From a virus (taxonomy: Duplodnaviria > Heunggongvirae > Uroviricota > Caudoviricetes): DNA of 10,267 nt. The notes under the pieces are model-generated. The model was not told where the DNA came from. It worked only from the letters and a program-made list of their open reading frames with translations, and searched no databases. The position numbers and the translations under genes were made by a program. The stretch lies in IMG/VR virus record IMGVR_UViG_2660238499_000007, positions 1-10,267 of that record; one strand, written 5' to 3'. Positions 1 through 7,334 of this stretch are shown piece by piece (the stretch's first letter is position 1; each line of letters begins with the position of its first letter).

Positions 1-204
1 TCACAAACTCACAAACCAGCAATGAGCCATCACAGGGGGGGGTAGCGACGAGTCGATGACCAGCAGCGCATCTTTCATAATGCCGAAGCGATAGATTGTC
101 TCTGACGCTTTCATGTAGTAGGTAGCATACGGTTTGTGGATGAATCTCTCATCAAGCGACAGGCGGTTCTCAACGTAATCAGCAGCCGGGCTCGGTAATC
201 CCAT
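1..204 (-). CDS. UmuD'-like (LexA/peptidase S24 family) N-terminal fragment; probably frameshifted or a pseudogene at the window edge
   Basis: 67-aa ORF MGLPSPAADYVENRLSLDERFIHKPYATYYMKAS...LLVIDSS aligns with E. coli UmuD from about residue 25 (GFPSPAADYVEQRIDLNQLL..ATYFVKAS..DLLIVDSA), i.e. it starts where UmuD is cleaved to UmuD'. GGAGG lies 6-8 nt upstream of ATG(204) and a LexA box sits just beyond. The frame terminates right after a G8 run (35-42); one alternative frame stays open to position 1. Confidence 0.55.
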   Translation of the reverse strand: MGLPSPAADYVENRLSLDERFIHKPYATYYMKASETIYRFGIMKDALLVIDSSLPPPVMAHCWFVSL

Positions 205-221
205 AACTCACCTCCGATAGT

Positions 222-241
222 TACTGTATATGAACACAGCA
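222..241. promoter_or_regulatory. LexA (SOS) box-like palindrome upstream of the umuD'-like ORF
   Basis: TACTGTATATGAACACAGCA has CTG-N10-CAG with an AT-rich centre, close to the consensus TACTGTATATATATACAGTA; it sits in the promoter position of the minus-strand ORF. Confidence 0.55.
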
Positions 242-404
242 TTGTCGATCGGTGGTGTCGATCAATAGAGATTTGAGTGATAAACTCAGATAATTACGGA
301 AACCTCTGATTGCTCAGCGTTTAGTTACACGTGCTATCTGTTATGCAAGTAGGGGTATTATCTTTTATTAATGCACACTAACTTTGTGCATATACGGAAA
401 TTAT

Positions 405-1553
405 ATGAATAAGATTGATGGTGGCAAGGTTCTTTCGGTCGAGGGTGTGAGGGGGTTGGCCTGCTTGATGGTAGTGCTTTCTCATCTATCAATAATTTTT
501 TTCCCTTACCTGCATACTGGAGACACAAAGATAATTAAGTCTTCTTTTGATGCGGTGACAAGAGATTTACCAATAGGCTTCACTTACTCTGGAACTTCAG
601 CTGTATATATATTCTTTGTATTAAGCGGATATATACTTACAAGTGTTATTTTCAGGTCTGGTTGTATATCTAAGAAGTCCGCAAAGATGCTGCTAGAAAG
701 GTATGTAAGATTATTAATACCAGTTTCGGCATCGATTATTATTTGCGCAATTGTTGTAAATTACTTCCCTTTCAATAAGTATTGGGTTCCGTGGATTTGG
801 TCATTGGGTAAAGATGGTGATTTATCTGTGATAGGAGTTTTAAAAAACTCACTATATGGCTCCATACTCAAAGGTGACTCTTCAATAAATATGGTTACAT
901 GGACTATGCAGGTTGAGTTTTATGGTTCTCTCCTTGTCTTTTTGATATCTCCTATTTCTATCTTTATTAAAAAAGCACCGCTAATATTATCTTTAATCGC
1001 AGTTTTAATCATAATTAACTTTAATGATAAAAATGCATATGGGTACGCATCATTCCTTTTTGGTATGGCTATATGTTTATGCGGATCATATAAGAATAAG
1101 GTTATTGGATATGCAATTCTTATTGCATCACTTTACTTGGCTGGATTTAAATATAATCATTATCTTTACGCATGGTTAAAAGAATTTTCATTATCTATTA
1201 ACAGCATTGAGAAAATAAATTTATACTTGCTTTTCAATCTATTATCTGGAATTGGAGTGGTATATTCCCTATGTAAGATTGGGGTTATGTCATGGTTTTC
1301 TGAATCAAAAATCATGGTCTTTTTAGGAAAGTTATCATTCTCGGCATACTTAATTCAAATGCCTGTATTTTATTGCTTATCAGGGCCAGTTTATCATGAA
1401 TCAAGGAAAATCATGAGCGACTCCAGCGCATGTTTATCAGCTGTTTTAATATCAGTGGTGATGCTTTATGCATGTTCTTACATCTTTTATTTGCTCATCG
1501 ACAGAAAAAGCATCGAGGTTTCCCATAGATTTGCCGCGATCTTTTCAAAGTAA
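405..1553 (+). CDS. Integral-membrane acyltransferase family 3 protein, O-antigen acetyltransferase (Oac/OafA)-like, probable serotype-conversion gene
   Basis: 382 aa from ATG 405 (the track uses an upstream in-frame TTG at 384). N-terminal motif VLSVEGVRGLACLMVVLSHLS matches the family-3 R-x10-H signature; the protein is very hydrophobic with many predicted TM segments; the gene is strongly AT-rich relative to its neighbours and sits next to a tailspike gene as in seroconverting P22/Sf6-type phages. Confidence 0.8.
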   Translation: MNKIDGGKVLSVEGVRGLACLMVVLSHLSIIFFPYLHTGDTKIIKSSFDAVTRDLPIGFTYSGTSAVYIFFVLSGYILTSVIFRSGCISKKSAKMLLERYVRLLIPVSASIIICAIVVNYFPFNKYWVPWIWSLGKDGDLSVIGVLKNSLYGSILKGDSSINMVTWTMQVEFYGSLLVFLISPISIFIKKAPLILSLIAVLIIINFNDKNAYGYASFLFGMAICLCGSYKNKVIGYAILIASLYLAGFKYNHYLYAWLKEFSLSINSIEKINLYLLFNLLSGIGVVYSLCKIGVMSWFSESKIMVFLGKLSFSAYLIQMPVFYCLSGPVYHESRKIMSDSSACLSAVLISVVMLYACSYIFYLLIDRKSIEVSHRFAAIFSK

Positions 1554-1560
1554 AATTAGA

Positions 1561-1582
1561 AGCCATGCGTTAGCGCATGGCT
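1561..1582. terminator. Bidirectional intrinsic terminator between convergent acyltransferase and tailspike genes
   Basis: 9-bp perfect stem AGCCATGCG/CGCATGGCT with a 4-nt loop, flanked by T-rich sequence on the tailspike strand (TCTAATTTTA) and CTTGACCTTT on the plus strand. Confidence 0.6.
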
Positions 1583-1588
1583 TGACCT

Positions 1589-3835
1589 TTAGTAAGAGAT
1601 AGGTATTTCTCCTGTAGAGAAGTTGCCTGCTGCACCTTCCCTGCTGCATAAAGCGAACTTCTTATCAACCACATCCCTTGAGTCTGTAGCAATAATTTCA
1701 TGGCAAATATTATTTGCAGATCTGTGCACGAATGTATTTACAACAGGCTTACTGGACGATGTTCCTTTGGCCCTCGTTCCGTCTATAAGGCAATCAGACA
1801 CCGACATAAGTCCTGAAACTAGGTTATTGCTTGAATCCCAATCTATCAACGACTTATCAAAATACACGCTTCCTAACATATAGGTTGTCCCTCCGGAGTA
1901 ACCAACAAACCTGCGCAGCACTCCACCTTCCAGCCTAATATAGCTGCGAGACATTCCAGACGTAAAGTTCATGAAAGTTATGTCCATATTGCTCTCAAGA
2001 CCATAAAGGCATGATGCATACTCATTCAGGTATCCAATATAAGCTAAAACCTTACAACCAATTGATTTCGCAGGTGTCAGTTTGACTATTGATATTTCTC
2101 TGGAAGTTGAATCATGGTAAGAGATGGCCCACTCAAATCTTGCATTTTTACCATTAAAGGTGCTTCCGGAGAAATCTATAACGCCAGGCATAATGAAATC
2201 ACGAATAATGCTATTTTGTGTCTTAAAATTATTTTTAAATGAAACAATGTTAAGTGTGACTGCGTCAGGCCAGTAGATATTTGTAGATATAATTACATTT
2301 TTTGGCAGATTTAATGCTCTTGGCTGAACAGGGCTACCAGTGGAAACAACATTATCACACCTGCATGTGAAGAGATCTACAAGCCCAGTTTTGTCCGATG
2401 ATATTCTTACCGAACCCCCTTTGACAATAAAATCCCCCTTATGCTCTCCATAGTCAGTGCGAATCCCAAAGGGACCAATATCTGAGTTTATAATCTGCGT
2501 TGATTCATCAAAAGCGCCAGTACCAAAAGCCGCGCCATTAATTATCCTGCAATTGTCTATCAAAACCTTAGACGATCCATAATGAAGATTGAAGCTATCA
2601 ACAGTGCAATCTCTTACCACAGTGTCACGGCTATAATTACCATCAATAGAACGCCACCCTTTCCCAACAACAGTGCTAAAAAAAGAATGCTTCAGAGTAA
2701 ACTCTAGAGTCAATGTGTAGCGAGATTCAGAATCAGGTTGTGTCATCCCCGATGAGCACAAATACCAATTAACACCGTATGTATTACTACTACCAAAAAT
2801 TGCAGAGTTGATGGGTATTACGCCTAAGGTATTATCATAATTAACCCTTACATCAACCATAGACCTTTTGATATCAACAGCCGTGCCAGTAAACGTCCCT
2901 GATAACTTAGGCAATACAGTGACAGTCCTTCGCACAGGCAGCTTATATAAAGTACAGATAAGTGAAGAGTTGTATGTATTCTTAAATGTATACGCTAAAT
3001 CACTTCCTTTGGTTAGTAGGTTAACTTCACCTTTGTATTTTGGCGTGAAAGTGCTGCCAAGCAATCGGTACAAGTCAATTTCAGTACCAGACATCTTAAC
3101 TAAGGAATTATCCCATCCAGTGGTTGACTCTGTAAATGTTAGCGCGGAAGTTAGCTCGTTTAATGGATATGCTGATGGTGTAAAATCTTTAATGTATGTA
3201 GATGCGTCTCTCTCATCAGCATAAACAATCTTACCGCCAGCCAGGTTGAACGTGCAATTGCTGAGATCAAAATCTCCGTATAACGTTGTCTCTTTGTCGA
3301 TAGTGAAAGTCAGTGGCATAGTTGAGTAGATTTTCACTGGAGTTCCTTTAAACTCAGCAAAAACAGAATTCAACTGATCGCTATTTCTTTCACCATCAGC
3401 AGCAGCTATATCGTATACAGAAAGCCTGACCTCTAACCCCCCTATTATTTTGTAACCGTCTGGCGAACTAATTTCATCCATGAACCTTTGCTCAAACTGG
3501 TCAGGGTCATACTTCAGCACATTCGGAAAATAGAACTGCTGAGAACCGTACGCATCGTATACAGCCATAGAATGGCCTTGCACAGTTACGAATTTGGCAA
3601 TCTGTCCGTTATATACAGGATACCCGCCAGCGTTAATGATGATTGGCTGTGCAACAGGAACGTGAGAACCGTCTTCGTTTTCCACATAAACCTGAATCTG
3701 GTTTTCAGGATTTACCGGGTCAGTGCCAATTTTACCGATATAAATTTTGCCATTGGCTACGGCTTTAAAAGAACGAGCCATAGTGAAGAGTTGCGAAGGC
3801 ATGCTTACCACAACATTTGCGGTGATATCTGACAT
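1589..3835 (-). CDS. P22-type tailspike protein (gp9 family) with conserved head-binding N-terminal domain and divergent receptor-binding/enzymatic body
   Basis: 748 aa from ATG at 3835 (CTGGAGCAATGAAATG, GGAG RBS); the track ORF starts 16 codons upstream. The first ~120 aa ([56 protein letters not shown]...[17 protein letters not shown]...[10 protein letters not shown]) match the P22 gp9 head-binding domain as recalled; the rest is Ser/Thr/Gly/Asn-rich as in beta-helix tailspikes but not recognisably P22, Sf6 or HK620. Confidence 0.9.
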
Positions 3836-3956
3836 TTCATTGCTCCAGACGAATGATATGATGCAACCATGATGTGATTGCATACCGAAATGGTACTATT
3901 GAGTATTTATCCAGTAGGTTACGATGCCATTCCACCCAACTGGTGAGGCATCAAGG
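3836..3956. promoter_or_regulatory. Divergent intergenic control region between tailspike and mnt; possible Mnt operator
   Basis: 121-bp spacer between divergent starts. It contains TCCACCCAACTGGTGAGG (about 3931-3948), an imperfect inverted repeat (CACC...GGTG) reminiscent of the P22 Omnt core (GGTCCACGGTGGACC). Promoter hexamers not assigned with confidence. Confidence 0.3.
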
Positions 3957-4217
3957 ATGTACAGCAAATACGACGAGGCGCAGTTTCACTTGAGACTTCC
4001 GCATGAACTTCACGCGAAAATTAAACAGCGTGCGAAGATGAATAACAGGTCGCTGAACTCAGAGATAATTGCAGCGATTGAAGAATCATTGACTAAACAA
4101 AGCTCTGCATCAGTTTACATTGACGATGCAGAGCGTATGGCAGAACAACAATCCGATATGGTAAAGAAAATTGTCTTTGATACGCTCAAAGAGCTATATA
4201 AAAAAGACAGCAGCTAA
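3957..4217 (+). CDS. mnt: Mnt-like ribbon-helix-helix repressor (Arc/Mnt family)
   Basis: 86 aa from ATG 3957 (AGGA RBS; the track ORF begins at an upstream ATG 3924). FHLRLPHELHAKIKQRAKMNNRSLNSEII..IEESL and the C-terminal ERMAEQQSDMVKKIVFDTLKELYKK closely resemble P22 Mnt (FNFRMPMEVREKLKFRAEANGRSMNSELLQIV...ERLADEQSELVKKMVFDTLKDLYKK) as recalled. Confidence 0.8.
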   Translation: MYSKYDEAQFHLRLPHELHAKIKQRAKMNNRSLNSEIIAAIEESLTKQSSASVYIDDAERMAEQQSDMVKKIVFDTLKELYKKDSS

Positions 4218-4224
4218 CTATCAG

Positions 4225-4728
4225 TTACGGAGGATTCCCGATAGGGGGTAAGGGGGTATTTGTATTTATTGTCTTTTGTATATTGTCTTTTGTGTTTGAC
4301 TGATTCGGTAAATTGCTTTTTACCGATTTGGTGAAGGTTTGTTTTACCGAATTGGTAAATGTTTTACCGAATCCGTTAACTTTCGTTTTCCACTCGGAAA
4401 TGTTTGTATTCATACCAACTTGACGCCCCACCTGAATGAGAACTCCCATTCTGATAAGCTCGTTTTTGGCGGTAGAGCATTTGGTTGGTGCCATGCCAGT
4501 GAGTTCAGCGAACTGTTCGTTTCCGATCCAATCTATTTTTTTGTTGTAACCGTATGTCTTGCGCCACACAGCCATAACAATCAGTAACTGATGTAGAGTA
4601 AGTCCAGAAAGCATGGCGGCTTCTAACAGTGTGTTTGCAGTCCGAGTGTAGCCATCTTCGAGTTCTGCCACGCGATGCTCCACGACCTCCAGTTGAGGCC
4701 TGTAATCAGCTAACTTAACGACGCCCAT
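4225..4728 (-). CDS. Lambda-O-like replication initiator, N-terminal iteron-binding domain only (truncated, C-terminal domain absent)
   Basis: 167 aa; residues 20-110 (AELEDGYTRTANTLLEA...LIVMAVWRKTYGYNKKIDWIGNEQFAELTGMAPTKCSTAKNELIRMGVLIQ...GMNTNISEW) parallel lambda O N-terminus (ADLDDGYARLSNMLLEA...LAILRKTYGWNKPMDRITDSQLSEITKLPVKRCNEAKLELVRMNIIKQ...GPNKNISEW). AGGAG RBS before ATG 4728. The ORF runs through the iteron and AT-rich region and stops at 4225, 7 bp from the mnt stop; lambda O is about 299 aa. Confidence 0.75.
   Translation of the reverse strand: MGVVKLADYRPQLEVVEHRVAELEDGYTRTANTLLEAAMLSGLTLHQLLIVMAVWRKTYGYNKKIDWIGNEQFAELTGMAPTKCSTAKNELIRMGVLIQVGRQVGMNTNISEWKTKVNGFGKTFTNSVKQTFTKSVKSNLPNQSNTKDNIQKTINTNTPLPPIGNPP
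4300..4381. repeat. ori-type iterons (four ~18-bp repeats) followed by AT-rich tract, embedded in the O-like gene
   Basis: Four copies of TTTACCGAAT-NN-GGTAAA-like repeats at about 22-bp spacing (ATTCGGTAAATTG; TTTACCGATTTGGTGAA; TTTACCGAATTGGTAAA, a perfect palindrome; TTTACCGAATCCGTTAA), mirrored in the protein as KTFTNSVKQTFTKSVK. An AT-rich AAAGACAATA-repeat stretch lies immediately 3' on the coding strand (about 4255-4300), matching lambda ori organisation. Confidence 0.7.
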
Positions 4729-4876
4729 GTTTCACTCCTGCTTTGGCTAGTCTGTAAACACCAACAAGGCGCTCTGCGAACGCCCTGTTATTTGCTGCGG
4801 CTACCACTAATCCCTCAGGTGAATCAGGGTGTCGAATCTCTTCTTTTTCCTGGTATTTCTTACGACGTTTTGTCAT
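4715..4876 (-). CDS. Small basic hypothetical protein (53 aa) between cII and the O-like gene
   Basis: ATG at 4876 preceded by AGGAG (CTACAGGAGTAATTATG); translation MTKRRKKYQEKEEIRHPDSPEGLVVAAANNRAFAERLVGVYRLAKAGVKHGRR; its stop overlaps the O-like start by about 14 nt. Below the ORF-track size cutoff; no family recognised. Confidence 0.35.
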   Translation of the reverse strand: MTKRRKKYQEKEEIRHPDSPEGLVVAAANNRAFAERLVGVYRLAKAGVKHGRR

Positions 4877-4908
4877 AATTACTCCTGTAGATTGATCCAG
4901 TAATTCCC

Positions 4909-5205
4909 TCAGAATTGCATATCAATTTGCTTAAAATCCTCGGTGGCGGCCGGGGATTTTTTCTTTGTGATTCCATCCAATGCATACTTAAAAGCCCTGC
5001 TAATCGGACTGATGTCTGATGCCATTCCGAAAGCACACAAGACCGAAGCAATAAACCTCCAGTCCGTTCTGCTTATCTTCGATTCATGACAGCCAATCAT
5101 CTTTGCCAGACCGCGCTGGGTAAGCGTTGACAGGTTGATGAGTAAATCAGTTTCAGCGCGATCAATTTCTCGCTGTGTTGGCTTGCTATAACTTGCTTGT
5201 GTCAT
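4909..5205 (-). CDS. cII: CII-family transcriptional activator (lysogeny establishment)
   Basis: 98 aa; the central HTH and C-terminus (..ISR.....L..G......KKSPAATEDFKQIDMQF) align with lambda CII (..KSQISRWKRDW....NKKRPAATERSEQIQMEF) at roughly 35-40 percent identity. It sits downstream of cro on the pR strand as in lambda. Confidence 0.8.
   Translation of the reverse strand: MTQASYSKPTQREIDRAETDLLINLSTLTQRGLAKMIGCHESKISRTDWRFIASVLCAFGMASDISPISRAFKYALDGITKKKSPAATEDFKQIDMQF
5183..5196 (+). promoter_or_regulatory. pRE-like CII-binding direct repeat (TTGC-N6-TTGC) overlapping the 5' end of cII, oriented toward cI
   Basis: TTGCTATAACTTGC on the plus strand inside the first codons of cII, the position and orientation of lambda pRE -35 (TTGC-N6-TTGC). 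Confidence 0.45.
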
Positions 5206-5289
5206 TTGTTAATTTTCCAATAGTGAATAGTTAGTTGAAAGGTATGCGTGGAAACGCATATGGCCTTAGTTGGTCAGATATCTTGGGGC

Positions 5290-5336
5290 TCGCTTTGTCA
5301 GCGACGTAGGACGAATGTCCATTGTGAAAAGAGCGG
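5290..5336 (-). promoter_or_regulatory. nutR-like site (boxA-like plus boxB hairpin) between cro and cII
   Basis: On the pR-transcribed strand: CGCTCTTTTCACA (boxA-like, about 5325-5337) followed by the hairpin TCGCTGACAAAGCGA (about 5290-5304), which resembles the P22-type boxB GCGCUGACAAAGCGC rather than lambda boxB GCCCUGAAGAAGGGC. Confidence 0.5.
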
Positions 5337-5342
5337 TGTTAC

Positions 5343-5543
5343 TTATGCAGTTGTTTTTTTGTTACTTGGGAAGGGCTTTATTTCTTCCGCATAAACGCTT
5401 CCATCAGCGTTTATAGTTAAAAAAATCTTTCGGCCTGCATGAATGGCCTTGTTAATCGCGCTTTGATATACGCCGAGATCTTTAGCCGTCTTGGTTTGCC
5501 CAAAGCGTATTGCATAATCTTTCAGGGTTATGCGTTGTTCCAT
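5343..5543 (-). CDS. cro: Cro repressor, lambda-type
   Basis: 66 aa [66 protein letters not shown], essentially lambda Cro with about two conservative substitutions versus my recall; AGGAGG RBS before the ATG. Confidence 0.95.
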
Positions 5544-5569
5544 ACAACCTCCTTAGTACAGGCAACCAC

Positions 5570-5633
5570 TATCACCGCTAGAGGTAAAATAGCCAACACG
5601 CACGGTGTTAGAAGTTTATCCCTTGCGGTGATA
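5570..5633. promoter_or_regulatory. Lambda-type right operator OR1-OR2-OR3 with divergent pR (toward cro) and pRM (toward cI)
   Basis: OR1 TATCACCGCTAGAGGTA (5570-5586, one G-to-A change versus lambda), OR2 CAACACGCACGGTGTTA (5594-5610, lambda wild type), OR3 TATCCCTTGCGGTGATA (5617-5633), placed between divergent cro and cI exactly as in lambda. Confidence 0.9.
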
Positions 5634-5640
5634 GATTTAA

Positions 5641-6357
<717 letters not shown>

Positions 6358-6388
6358 TTGTTTTATTTTTCACGTAATAGGATGATTT

Positions 6389-6730
6389 ATGACACAATTT
6401 CAACTTGCATTAATCGCTAGAGAAGTTGATGGAGAAGTCATCCATCTTCGCACCAAAGACGGATACATCAATGCCACCGCGATGTGCAAGTCTGCGGGGA
6501 AGCTACTTGCTGACTATACACGACTAAAAACAACACAAGATTTTTTTGATGAATTATCACGCGATATGGGGATTCCCATATCGGAGTTAATTCAATCATT
6601 TAAAGGCGGAAGAGCAGAGAATCAAGGGACTTGGGTTCATCCAGACATCGCAATTAATTTAGCTCAGTGGCTATCTCCAAAATTTGCAGTGCAAGTATCG
6701 AGATGGGTGCGTGAGTGGATGTCAGGTTAA
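6389..6730 (+). CDS. KilA-N domain protein (113 aa) in the cI-downstream accessory locus
   Basis: YINATAMCKSAGKLLADYTRLKTTQDFFDELS...GTWVHPDIAINLAQWLSPKFAVQVSRWV matches the KilA-N/APSES-type DNA-binding signature (NATxxCKxxGK ... GTWVHPxxAxxLAxWxSPxF) as I recall it. It occupies the locus lambda uses for rexAB. An in-frame TAA at 6728-6730 separates it from the next ORF. Confidence 0.55.
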   Translation: MTQFQLALIAREVDGEVIHLRTKDGYINATAMCKSAGKLLADYTRLKTTQDFFDELSRDMGIPISELIQSFKGGRAENQGTWVHPDIAINLAQWLSPKFAVQVSRWVREWMSG

Positions 6731-6769
6731 AGAGCGCCTGCCGAACTCCCTATCCACCTTAAGCGGTAT

Positions 6770-7148
6770 ATGACAAACCGAGGCAGAGTTCCTCATACGC
6801 ACTTTTCTATGCTTAATGAACTGACGTTTAACTTGGTTGCGCCACTTGAACAGGCCGGATATACGCTGCCAGAAAAAATGGTCCCTGATATTTCAGAGGG
6901 TAGGGTTTTCTCGCAATGGCTCCGTGACAACCGGGGGGTTGAGCCGAAGACATTCCCAACATATAACCATGAGTACCCAGATGGCCGGACATTCCCGGTA
7001 CGTCTATACCCAAACGAATATTGCAGATTTCAAACAATACTTCAACGAAGTGTGGCTGCCTCAGTACGCTCCTAAATATTTTGCTGAACGAGACCAAAGG
7101 GCATTGACGTTGATTGAGAAAATCATGCTACCTGACCTTGATTCCTAA
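6770..7148 (+). pseudogene. Hypothetical gene downstream of KilA-N, apparently disrupted by a frameshift near 7000-7025 (possible original C-terminal part of the KilA-N protein)
   Basis: The frame opening at 6770 (MTNRGRVPHTHFSMLNELTFNLVAPLEQAGY...YPDGRTFPVRLYPNEY) is the same frame as the KilA-N ORF, separated by one stop. It ends at 7075, but a second frame continues with protein-like sequence (..IADFKQYFNEVWLPQYAPKYFAERDQRALTLIEKIMLPDLDS) to a stop at 7146-7148 that is followed directly by an intrinsic terminator. Confidence 0.4.
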
Positions 7149-7156
7149 ATGTTATT

Positions 7157-7182
7157 CCCGGCCACAGAGCCGGGTTTTCTTT
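7157..7182 (+). terminator. Intrinsic terminator closing the cI-operon accessory region
   Basis: CCCGGC-CACAGA-GCCGGG stem-loop followed by TTTTCTTT. Confidence 0.7.
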
Positions 7183-7334
7183 GCCTCACGATCCCCCTCA
7201 CCCAAGAACACATAACCAATTGTATCTATTTGAAAATAAATAGATACAACTCACTAAACATAGCAGTTCAGATCTCTCACCTACCAAACAATGCACCACT
7301 GCAAAAAATAAATTCATATAAAAAACATACAGAT

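Follow-up and report, generated by a model that had tools for sequence, protein, structure and literature searches.

The stretch of viral DNA analysed here (10,267 nucleotides, referred to below as the window) is part of an ordinary defective prophage of Escherichia coli, which very probably arose through the loss of around 23.5 kb from a P22-like prophage integrated at the sbcB site. The ancestor would have been a temperate phage of the Lederbergvirus group that combined a Sf101/IME10-type architecture with a lambda-type immunity region and used the att site of sbcB, beside dacD, to enter the chromosome. The DNA would have been lost while the phage was integrated, most simply in a single illegitimate recombination without need for homology. 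One endpoint of this deletion would fall within a small G/C palindrome of gene O that follows closely on the AT-rich stretch of ori, and the other 19 nt downstream of mnt. The segment so removed would have included the helicase-recruiting C-terminal domain of O, the helicase gene, the nin region, Q and the lysis genes, together with the terminase, portal, coat, tail-hub and ejection genes. What was left, presumably incapable of replication, host lysis, DNA packaging or excision, would then have passed down a single lineage as part of the chromosome. The features of the window are collected in Table 1.

Table 1. Features of the window, in order of position
Feature	Position	Strand	Evidence and remarks
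UmuD/HumD-like gene fragment, attR-proximal prophage end	1-204	-	phrog_811 UmuD-like, profile positions 21-77 of 140
AT3-family acyltransferase, 382 aa	405-1553	+	Pfam Acyl_transf_3 (PF01757), E=2e-25; phrog_3333 O-acetyltransferase
Tailspike, 748 aa, intact in window	1589-3835	-	Pfam Head_binding, E=2.5e-66, residues 1-113
mnt-like repressor, 86 aa	3957-4217	+	Pfam Arc and Repressor_Mnt; divergent from tailspike
Last 19 nt of mnt-side DNA	4218-4236	+	ends in GGAGGATT, a Shine-Dalgarno sequence
Truncated replication initiator O'	4225-4728	-	O residues 1-164 (with N163I), then Asn-Pro-Pro-stop read from mnt-side DNA
Deletion junction	4236/4237		0 bp microhomology; window compared with mnt-side parent (L023, L024) and O-side relatives (BTP1, L027, L032)
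Presumed ori, inside O'	4258-4379	-	four ~17-bp iterons and adjoining AT-rich stretch 4258-4292
orf53, conserved small ORF between cII and O	4715-4876	-	phrog_1331, full length
cII	4909-5205	-	Pfam Phage_CII, E=2e-33
Presumed oop-like terminator, antisense to cII	4933-4960	+	terminator-like hairpin
cro, lambda type, intact in window	5343-5543	-	Pfam Cro, E=8e-34
Lambda-type OR region (operator names presumed)	5568-5633	-	OR1 5570-5586, OR2 5594-5610, OR3 5617-5633
cI repressor, lambda type, 237 aa	5644-6357	+	Pfam HTH_3 and Peptidase_S24; intact
bstA-like pseudogene (KilA-N and BstA_C)	6389-7150	+	E114* at 6728; 2-bp deletion near 7020
Eroded early-left operon	7544-8076	+	BLAST breakpoints against HK140, mEp234 and L032
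AlpA-type excisionase gene	9261-9452	+	phrog_66; syntenic with Sf101 gp19 and HK544 gp27
C-terminal part of integrase, residues ~159-392	9433-10124	-	1-bp deletion in C6 run 9899-9904
End of IS3-family insertion sequence splitting int	10125-10267		97.9% identical to IS3-family element in EC2641

The initial annotation had placed a deletion junction at 4200-4240, where the stop codons of mnt and of a truncated O gene were said to converge 7 bp apart. The two convergent reading frames do end in this way, with TAA codons at 4215-4217 on the plus strand and 4225-4227 on the minus strand and a spacer at 4218-4224. Alignment with complete genomes, which had been proposed as a check, now locates the true breakpoint to the base within that range, between 4236 and 4237. 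BLAST matches to the mnt side end uniformly at 4236 in IME10 and in 93 complete E. coli genomes, and matches to gene O begin uniformly at 4237 in BTP1, Salmonella phage P6, HK97 and HK544. The mnt-tailspike arm is 100% identical up to 4236 in five intact-looking prophages (L017, L018, L021, L022 and L023), all of which run on past the equivalent position into gene 16. The GGAGGATT that closes the mnt-side DNA is the Shine-Dalgarno sequence of a small ORF for a hydrophobic 22-aa product, and this ORF was removed by the deletion; in L023 (13814-13903) GGAGGATT is followed directly by TATGCAAAGAGATATGCTG, and the reading continues to a TGA codon. Comparison with BTP1 and L027 puts the O-side break inside a small palindrome, CCCCCGTTAGGGGG, next to ori.

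Microhomology, an IS scar and a repeat were sought at the junction as marks of a specific deletion mechanism, and sequence comparison revealed none of them. Both flanks go straight into parent-like sequence without an IS remnant, filler DNA or a duplicated target. The best O-side parent is BTP1, at 93.7% identity, and the A at 4241, only 5 bp from the junction, is a lineage-specific base. Since an O-side parent with 100% identity was not found, a parent that carried this A, or a multi-step origin, is possible. The latter, in which the junction is the end of several successive events (deletions nested within one another, say, or a deletion caused by an IS that was itself lost later), would suit an element whose interior contains an IS and no fewer than two further breakpoints, as well as the base at 4241. 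As for the intermediate deletion states that had been proposed as a check, same-locus relatives with several smaller deletions exist, such as L025 (a 4.95-kb loss and others), but no intermediate with either endpoint is present among the loci fetched. Given also that the flanks are clean right up to the junction, a multi-event history appears quite improbable.

In complete genomes the interval that corresponds to the deletion measures 23.2 kb (P22), 23.4 kb (BTP1) and 23.7 kb (both Sf101 and IME10), and the initial figure of about 30 kb between ori and mnt was therefore too high. The accompanying claim that the virion-making genes had been lost was correct, as nothing is left of the span from the C-terminal domain of O to gene 16. 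Relatives L023 and L024 have the full set of genes for morphogenesis, lysis and replication, and no gene of this set is found between the att cores of the remnant. Prophage L023, which adjoins dacD, is 99.7% identical over window positions 1-4236 and then carries genes 16, 20, 7, 14, 26, 10 and 4. It is this combination of lost essential functions, including a truncated O, with near-identical intact relatives (99.7-100% identity to L023 or L017 up to the breakpoint) that identifies a defective prophage. Its P22-like nature is apparent from the P22-type tailspike head-binding domain (PF09008) with an adjacent mnt-type repressor (PF03869 and PF11423), and its placement in Lederbergvirus from a gene order that matches Sf101, IME10 and BTP1 in an element flanked by attL and attR.

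The whole remnant is found on one contig, L004, where 12.76 kb lies between two copies of a 13-bp att core, CGTAATCGTGAAA, at 2551 and 15310, with sbcB on one side and dacD on the other. This core is the published attP of Sf101 and phage 2851 (PMC4159516). Base 1 of the window corresponds to L004 position 14728, with attR about 580 bp to the left of the window, and the UmuD-like fragment at this end has a counterpart in HK140, where a UmuD-like gene adjoins attP. The fact that a single contig holds the entire remnant argues against an assembly artefact, in which two prophage regions would have been joined through a repeat. Most carriers are short-read assemblies, and the junction-bearing contigs L008 and L043 may be chimeric elsewhere, at conserved phage modules; against this, the junction has neither homology nor a repeat, contigs reach from sbcB to dacD, and 58 blocks of public assemblies encode the exact fusion protein, with an identical junction in contigs from four data sources (NCBI, ENA, Logan and JGI) and different assemblers. 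An artefact is thus extremely improbable. The carriers are draft genomes and metagenome contigs; among 5,426 complete E. coli genomes, not one has the exact fusion protein. The junction 32-mer is absent from 185,579 species-representative genomes, and its search matched only one short JGI metagenome contig. The copies of the remnant are approximately 99.9% identical to each other.

The truncated initiator retains the N-terminal domain only, matching Pfam Phage_rep_O (PF04492) over profile positions 1-95 of 95. Its alignment to O proteins of 273-277 aa ends at residue 164, with about 110 C-terminal residues gone, and its final three sense codons (AAT CCT CCG) and stop belong to the mnt-side DNA. 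As in lambda O and P22 gp18, the iteron-binding domain is encoded by a gene that itself contains the iterons, which are found at 4296-4312, 4319-4335, 4343-4359 and 4363-4379 (repeat families D1, D2 and I1-I3); we take this region to be ori by analogy with lambda and P22. The C-terminal domain of O and its partner helicase or loader are both missing, no helicase gene being present in the window. The neighbouring orf53 is present in 40,631 blocks, and in nine of ten sampled independent contexts a 273-aa O and then a DnaB-type helicase accompany it, the tenth (L035) having a 362-aa replication gene and a 478-aa helicase. O is hence full length in the sampled orf53 relatives, and the initial reading of a truncated gene holds, as intact relatives do not end O after ori.

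A replication module with a naturally short O, or a phage satellite that never underwent a deletion, would also keep int, xis, a repressor, ori and an initiator DNA-binding domain, but this resemblance is superficial. Ordinary prophages that run into full genes match each arm at 99-100% identity, O' ends in three foreign codons, and genes for redirecting packaging are lacking. A PICI-like satellite would have a functional integrase, a replication module and helper-packaging genes, whereas here int is broken, O is truncated and no packaging genes are found. Such an origin has a practically negligible probability. The remnant does share features with plasmid-borne lambda oop-ori fragments, which inhibit rep-lambda phages by blocking the initiation of lambda replication, the 'inhibition phenotype' (PMC3349717). 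Like them, it has retained an oop-like terminator and the beginning of O, and none of the four iterons is missing; those fragments, however, are multicopy and have lambda-specific iterons, whereas the fragment in the remnant is single-copy and P22-type.

On the other side of the junction, the receptor-binding part of the tailspike is 67% identical to the ECO1230-10 tailspike, and the mnt-like gene has an alternative start at 3924 that would give a product of 97 aa. The acyltransferase gene occupies the slot of oac and oacB, between the tailspike and attP, and its product is therefore a putative O-antigen O-acetyltransferase. Both the AT3 membrane acyltransferase type and the position agree with the Oac/OacB group, including synteny with Sf101 oacB, and intact P22-like prophages, both at argW and at dacD, encode an identical protein. 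A sequence relationship to Oac or OacB was not detected by tblastn against 50,697 phage records, where the sole match was Pantoea phage PA-1 at 29% identity. The enzyme of the remnant could still acetylate O-antigen. The gene differs from the intact copies only synonymously, and this was rejected as a sign of constraint: those loci were retrieved by exact protein match, and the pattern therefore reflects ascertainment bias. The same bias applies to the presence of the gene in L016-L025, which were retrieved via the acyltransferase protein itself.

The remainder of the remnant is eroded. In all copies examined int is split by the IS, and in most it is also frameshifted; a tblastn search with Sf101 Int matches in two frames in the window and in a single frame in L006, L047 and L010. 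In L004 and L007, int residues 1-165 lie beyond the IS, which bears HTH_Tnp_1 and rve ORFs. The remnant is predicted to be unable to excise, because int is both split and frameshifted, or to form particles. At a second junction, at about 7554/7555, the pL region runs into the interior of a gp42-like ORF and N is consequently absent, and a recT fragment is cut at about 8030; the early-left fragments match phrog_3486 (positions 40-102 of 102) and phrog_148 (positions 28-132 of 387). The bstA-like gene, which adjoins cI, has weak similarity to BTP1 BstA, and its lesions were called against the 253-aa intact allele of E. coli ML35. Its nonsense codon at 6728 is common to L003 and L041, relatives that do not have the junction, and is therefore older than the deletion; it was accordingly rejected as an example of post-deletion decay.

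The initial annotation had described a grounded prophage that keeps the immunity region, ori, mnt, tailspike and acyltransferase, and this description is supported. Its further suggestion, that the retained genes form an intact beneficial set held by selection, fares less well, with int split, the N region missing, recT truncated and two lesions in the bstA-like gene. The changes can be ordered: the int frameshift and the pR -10 change follow the IS and the deletion, and precede lesions in the pR -35, cro, the tailspike and the acyltransferase. After the deletion, nonsense codons arose in sublineages in the tailspike (W394*), the acyltransferase (W166*) and cro (Q16*, in L012, L050 and L053). 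The post-deletion spectrum consists of 6 non-synonymous or nonsense changes to 2 synonymous ones, compared with 5 and 15, respectively, for intact copies (Fisher p=0.03), and this ratio indicates that constraint has been relaxed since the deletion. Two further contigs, L008 with another immunity region to the right of window position 5336 and L043 with another tailspike receptor-binding domain, were considered as cases of post-deletion recombination and dropped; they may be assembly chimeras formed via conserved modules, since L053, from the same sample as L008, has the lambda-type immunity part.

It could be argued that the immunity switch, ori, tailspike and acyltransferase are each kept by positive or purifying selection for a benefit to the host. 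Consistent with this, cI, mnt and O' are unchanged in about 18 copies where some 2.9 changes would be expected, a weak signal (P(0)=0.045); remnants with the acyltransferase only exist, as in L019; and the derived pR and cro mutations could reflect selection locking cI on. Such selection nevertheless appears unlikely, and the data give it little support, as the nonsense codons postdate the deletion, the mutational spectrum points the other way, the recurrence of the acyltransferase stems from how the loci were retrieved, and copies this similar leave little power to detect constraint. To our knowledge, a tailspike without a virion has no role.

Selection against killing functions accounts for the pattern no less well than selection in favour of what was retained, since independent deletions in L025 and in the related argW remnants of cryptic-prophage type, L001, L003 and L019, have differing endpoints but share the loss of the central lethal genes. 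The likeliest reason for the persistence of the deletion in the sbcB remnant would be that it took away lysis and the replicative killing exerted by a non-excisable prophage; selection favouring the retained genes is a less likely reason. In laboratory work, non-excisable inducible lambda prophages kill by in-situ replication, and survivors have lesions in O, P or ori (PMC6022878). The remnant likewise has O cut directly after ori and the helicase gene gone. These RK- survivors are laboratory selections, mostly with point mutations or small indels, whereas the remnant has a natural 23.5-kb deletion that extends to the lysis and morphogenesis genes, and we infer a causal tie to the replicative-killing route by analogy.

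IS-disrupted Sf101-like remnants at sbcB have been reported in S. flexneri genomes by the describers of Sf101 (PMC4159516). This Shigella phage, a Lederbergvirus that integrates at sbcB and carries oacB, has the same order of ejection genes, mnt-like gene, tailspike, acyltransferase, attP, int and xis, and shares with the remnant the 13-bp att core, the integration site and an int that is about 98% identical at the nucleotide level. Unlike the remnant, Sf101 is an intact phage of 38.7 kb, and its OacB, tailspike receptor-binding domain, immunity region and replication genes have no nucleotide-level similarity to those found here.

The cryptic prophages CPS-53/KplE1, Rac, DLP12 and Qin of E. 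coli K-12 are fixed remnants that have kept prophage ends and cargo and lost virion genes, the cargo including, for example, O-antigen modification genes adjoining the integrase. The present remnant resembles these lambdoid elements in all three respects, but it lies at the sbcB-dacD site, has an AT3 acyltransferase instead of gtrABC, still has an intact lambda-type immunity region and is, judging from the identity of its copies, much younger. Its junction is a textbook example of a temperate phage becoming a fixed chromosomal remnant, a well-documented phenomenon. What it usefully adds is a base-exact, homology-free breakpoint and an intact sister prophage at the same locus, a pairing that makes the event reconstructable in the laboratory, together with a small natural data set of copies in which the changes that follow grounding can be ordered.

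The lambda-type switch is recognized from a cI with HTH and S24 domains, Cro and a tripartite OR, the names OR1, OR2 and OR3 and the oop assignment of the hairpin within cII presumably carrying over from lambda. The lambda pR (TTGACT, a 17-nt spacer and GATAAT) is not found in the window, where both hexamers are mutated, the -35 to TTGGCT (5591-5596) and the -10 to GATAGT (5568-5573); six of six outgroups keep both lambda hexamers. There are 0 differences in cI in every copy examined, and the protein could still repress lambda-immunity phages that enter the cell. It may tentatively be proposed, as a rather doubtful reading, that selection after grounding reshaped the switch into a permanently cI-ON immunity module or stopped pR read-through across the new junction, which would be antisense to mnt and the acyltransferase. 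A consensus scan for promoters and terminators around the junction found no minus-strand terminator between O' and the tailspike, and an Rfam scan of the whole window gave no match. Across the copies, four independent derived mutations hit cro or a hexamer of pR (the -10, and on two occasions the -35), with the operators and cI unaltered. Should this clustering, which was unexpected, hold in more genomes, it would be direct evidence of how a leftover immunity switch is domesticated.

The reading of this P22-like element as a prophage grounded by a deletion, proposed in the initial annotation, is borne out: prophages that share its arm run on into virion genes, its junction is exact to the base, and its flanks are native. 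The mnt stop (4215-4217) and the stop of the O-like ORF (4225-4227) are, as originally described, convergent with 7 bp between them. In BLAST searches of 50,697 phage records and 5,426 complete E. coli genomes, the mnt-side matches (phage IME10 and 93 E. coli genomes) all stop at 4236, the O-gene matches (BTP1, P6, HK97 and HK544) all begin at 4237, and the match to P22 gene 18 begins at 4242; none of the 5,426 complete genomes spans the join. A three-way comparison places the breakpoint, which the annotation had proposed to locate to the base, between 4236 and 4237 with zero shared bases. With the break marked by a slash, the sequence is ...GGAGGATT/TATGCAAAG in the mnt-side parent, ...GCCGCC/CCCGTTAGGGGG in the O-side relatives and ...GGAGGATT/CCCGATAGGGGG in the window. 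The A at 4241 is unlike all O-side relatives and is found in every junction-bearing copy.

The fused ORF begins with O residues 1-164, which include the change N163I, and then reads Asn-Pro-Pro-stop from the mnt-side DNA. It contains four iterons (4296-4379) and an AT-rich stretch (4258-4292), and the break comes next after these, inside a small palindrome, CCCCCGTTAGGGGG, so that ori appears to have been kept. The ORF is without the ~110-residue C-terminal domain of O, and the helicase gene is also lost. The other end of the break lies 19 nt past the mnt stop, a position that in intact relatives is 71 nt ahead of the gene 16 stop and 2 nt 5' of the ATG start codon of a small ORF, which encodes a hydrophobic peptide of 22 aa and has a strong Shine-Dalgarno sequence. 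The deletion removed this small ORF but left its Shine-Dalgarno sequence. In L023, an intact-looking relative, the small ORF (MQRDMLNIAFYIFGFCTFLVFAKLF) is found at 13827-13903, just beyond the equivalent of window 4236 and immediately 3' of mnt, with the Shine-Dalgarno sequence GGAGG.

Features of the window, from an ORF listing together with Pfam and PHROG scans (coordinates are those of the + strand)
Feature	Position	Strand
UmuD/HumD-like fragment	1-204	-
AT3 acyltransferase	405-1553	+
Tailspike, 748 aa, P22 head-binding domain	1589-3835	-
Arc/Mnt-type repressor (mnt)	3957-4217	+
167-aa protein, N-terminal Phage_rep_O domain only (O')	4225-4728	-
orf53	4715-4876	-
cII	4909-5205	-
cro	5343-5543	-
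cI, 237 aa, HTH and S24 domains	5644-6357	+
KilA-N/BstA_C gene (bstA-like), split	6389-7150	+
gp42-like gene and recT, fragments of both		
Excisionase, AlpA-type	9261-9452	+
Integrase, C-terminal two-thirds	9433-10124	-
IS3-family element, end portion	10125-10267	

Relatives were retrieved by the exact acyltransferase sequence, and the loci so fetched contain this gene by construction. Retrieved prophages with the same acyltransferase-tailspike-mnt arm are 99.4-99.7% identical over window 1-4236 and run on from mnt into genes 16, 20, 7, 14, 26, 10 and 4. They are found both at argW/intS (L016-L022) and at the window's own dacD-side locus (L023 and L024). The interval equivalent to the break measures 23.2 kb in P22, ~23.4 kb in BTP1 and ~23.7 kb in Sf101 and IME10, all complete phages, which makes the loss of about 30 kb originally put forward an overestimate by roughly 6 kb. 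The tailspike allele of the window has a single database record, as an E. coli protein. The acyltransferase has almost no kin in deposited phage genomes, the best being Pantoea phage PA-1 at 29% identity; its 90%-identity cluster also takes in Enterobacter hormaechei chromosomal proteins. In the UmuD-like fragment, a poly-G tract (window 28-35) is longer or shorter by 1-3 G residues between otherwise near-identical copies.

A short O might instead be the natural state, or the join an artefact of assembly. The neighbour of O, orf53, is found in public assemblies in 40,631 blocks. Ten distinct contexts were returned: in nine, it is followed by a 273-aa O and then by a DnaB-type helicase of 458 aa, and in the tenth, L035, the replication gene encodes 362 aa and the helicase 478 aa. 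Relatives with O ending after ori, which the initial annotation had named as evidence against its reading, are thus absent among these ten contexts, and a naturally short O is rejected. As for assembly, 58 indexed blocks drawn from NCBI, ENA and Logan contain a protein identical to the 167-aa fusion, and the junction 32-mer was also found in one JGI contig. The entire element is carried by locus L004, in which yeeE-yeeD-sbcB, the remnant and dacD-sbmC-yeeA-yeeX-cobU follow in order. The 13-bp att core published for Sf101 and phage 2851 (PMC4159516) occurs in L004 at 2551 (the 5' end of sbcB) and at 15310, a spacing of 12.76 kb including the IS. The neighbour genes that flank the remnant at either end are native, which makes a simple internal deletion the straightforward reading. 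Two variant contigs carry the identical junction. In L008 the immunity region right of window-equivalent 5336 differs, as does, in L043, the tailspike receptor-binding domain left of window-equivalent 3245; either the remnant recombined with other lambdoid phages or the metagenome assembly is chimeric. The lambda-type immunity part is present in L053, which comes from the sample that also yielded L008.

Comparison of relatives for intermediate deletion states, also suggested at the outset, returned endpoints that all differ. At the same locus, L025 has mid-mnt (window-equivalent 4044) fused to the tail-needle gene, with a 4.95-kb loss and additional losses among head genes, and at argW, nothing is left of L019 beyond intS, the acyltransferase and the final 200 nt of the tailspike. 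WS4437A-1 has a helicase fragment fused to a gene-16 fragment, and in EC2641 O is fused at about codon 25 to an ejection-protein gene. Because none of these four shares an endpoint with the window, the independent deletions are parallels and not precursors.

The integrase gene is interrupted near codon 160 by an IS3-family element (10124/10125) in every copy, and most copies, the window included, have in addition lost one base of the C6 run at 9899-9904. The 1-bp deletion is confined to the sublineage with the pR -10 mutation, the IS insertion being in all copies. At about 7554/7555 the pL region runs into the middle of the gp42-like ORF, so that no N gene is present, and recT is truncated at about 8030. 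The EC2641 remnant at argW (L003) is 99.6% identical to window 4652-7608 and has the 7554/7555 junction in common with it, the major deletion and integration site being different; the shared left arm could stem either from recombination between resident prophages or from common descent from a phage already without N. Compared with the intact allele of 253 aa in E. coli ML35, the bstA-like gene, which adjoins cI, has been inactivated by E114* (6728 G>T) and by the loss of 2 bp near 7020. E114* is also found in relatives without the junction, the prophages of strains EC2641 and 1008S19, and this nonsense codon is therefore older than the deletion.

The suggestion that the retained genes were kept by selection finds no support in the available variation. 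The junction-bearing contigs, about 18 in number, show roughly 99.9% identity to the window. Their post-deletion changes comprise tailspike W394* (L004, L007 and L044), acyltransferase W166* (L010), cro Q16* (window 5498; L012, L050 and L053) and, in various copies, three missense and two synonymous changes. This spectrum of 6 non-synonymous or nonsense to 2 synonymous, as against 5:15 in tailspike and mnt of intact copies (Fisher p=0.03), is one of small numbers and in part of metagenomic contigs, but points to a relaxation of constraint rather than to maintenance. No changes are seen in cI, mnt and O', where about 2.9 hits were expected (P=0.045), an invariance that is only weakly informative. 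All independent remnants are alike in having lost the central block of replication, lysis and morphogenesis genes, a feature that fits with selection against killing functions. In lambda, non-excisable prophages kill upon induction via in-situ replication, and the survivors bear lesions in O, P or ori (PMC6022878). Since int is broken by an IS, a plausible route would be one in which in-situ replicative killing favoured deletion of O and the helicase gene.

The closest described phage is Sf101, which shares with the remnant the integration site and att core, an integrase of about 98% identity, and the gene order mnt-like gene, tailspike, acyltransferase, attP, int. Unlike the remnant, Sf101 is an intact phage, and it differs in its genes for cargo, immunity and replication. 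That Sf101-like remnants broken by an IS occur at sbcB in Shigella was already noted by its describers (PMC4159516). The oop-like terminator, O start and iterons of the remnant resemble a lambda fragment that inhibits rep-lambda phages, although the lambda fragment was on multicopy plasmids whereas the remnant is single copy (PMC3349717). The remnant belongs to the cryptic or "grounded" prophages, a class that is well known (PMC6379469). Its junction is an ordinary feature of a known kind of element, rightly attributed to deletion.

The immunity region is lambda-type, with OR1, OR2 and OR3 recognisable, and cI and Cro are presumably near-identical to those of lambda. The states of pR (window 5568-5596) and cro (5498) were scored in loci L004-L013 and L044-L053. 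All six outgroups have the pR hexamers TTGACT (-35) and GATAAT (-10), and L006, L047 and L010 retain both together with an intact cro. The remaining thirteen junction-bearing copies, the window included, have GATAGT at -10; among these thirteen, it is accompanied by TTGGCT at -35 in the window and L052 and by TTAACT in L011, all with cro intact, and by TTGACT and cro Q16* in L012, L050 and L053. Four independent derived mutations have thus arisen in pR or cro (-10 once, -35 twice, and Q16*). The three independent hits in the 12 bp of the pR hexamers, out of ~20 events over 10.2 kb, have a nominal P of ~2e-6 in a post hoc test, and two of the three changes fall just outside the operator 17-mers. 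Transcripts from pR now run antisense through mnt, sense through the tailspike and antisense into the acyltransferase, with no terminator predicted along this path. The hits could reflect selection to silence pR, for which possible reasons are a lock on the immune state, less expression of cII or O', or a stop to read-through. The repeated hits in pR and cro are a modestly interesting side observation.
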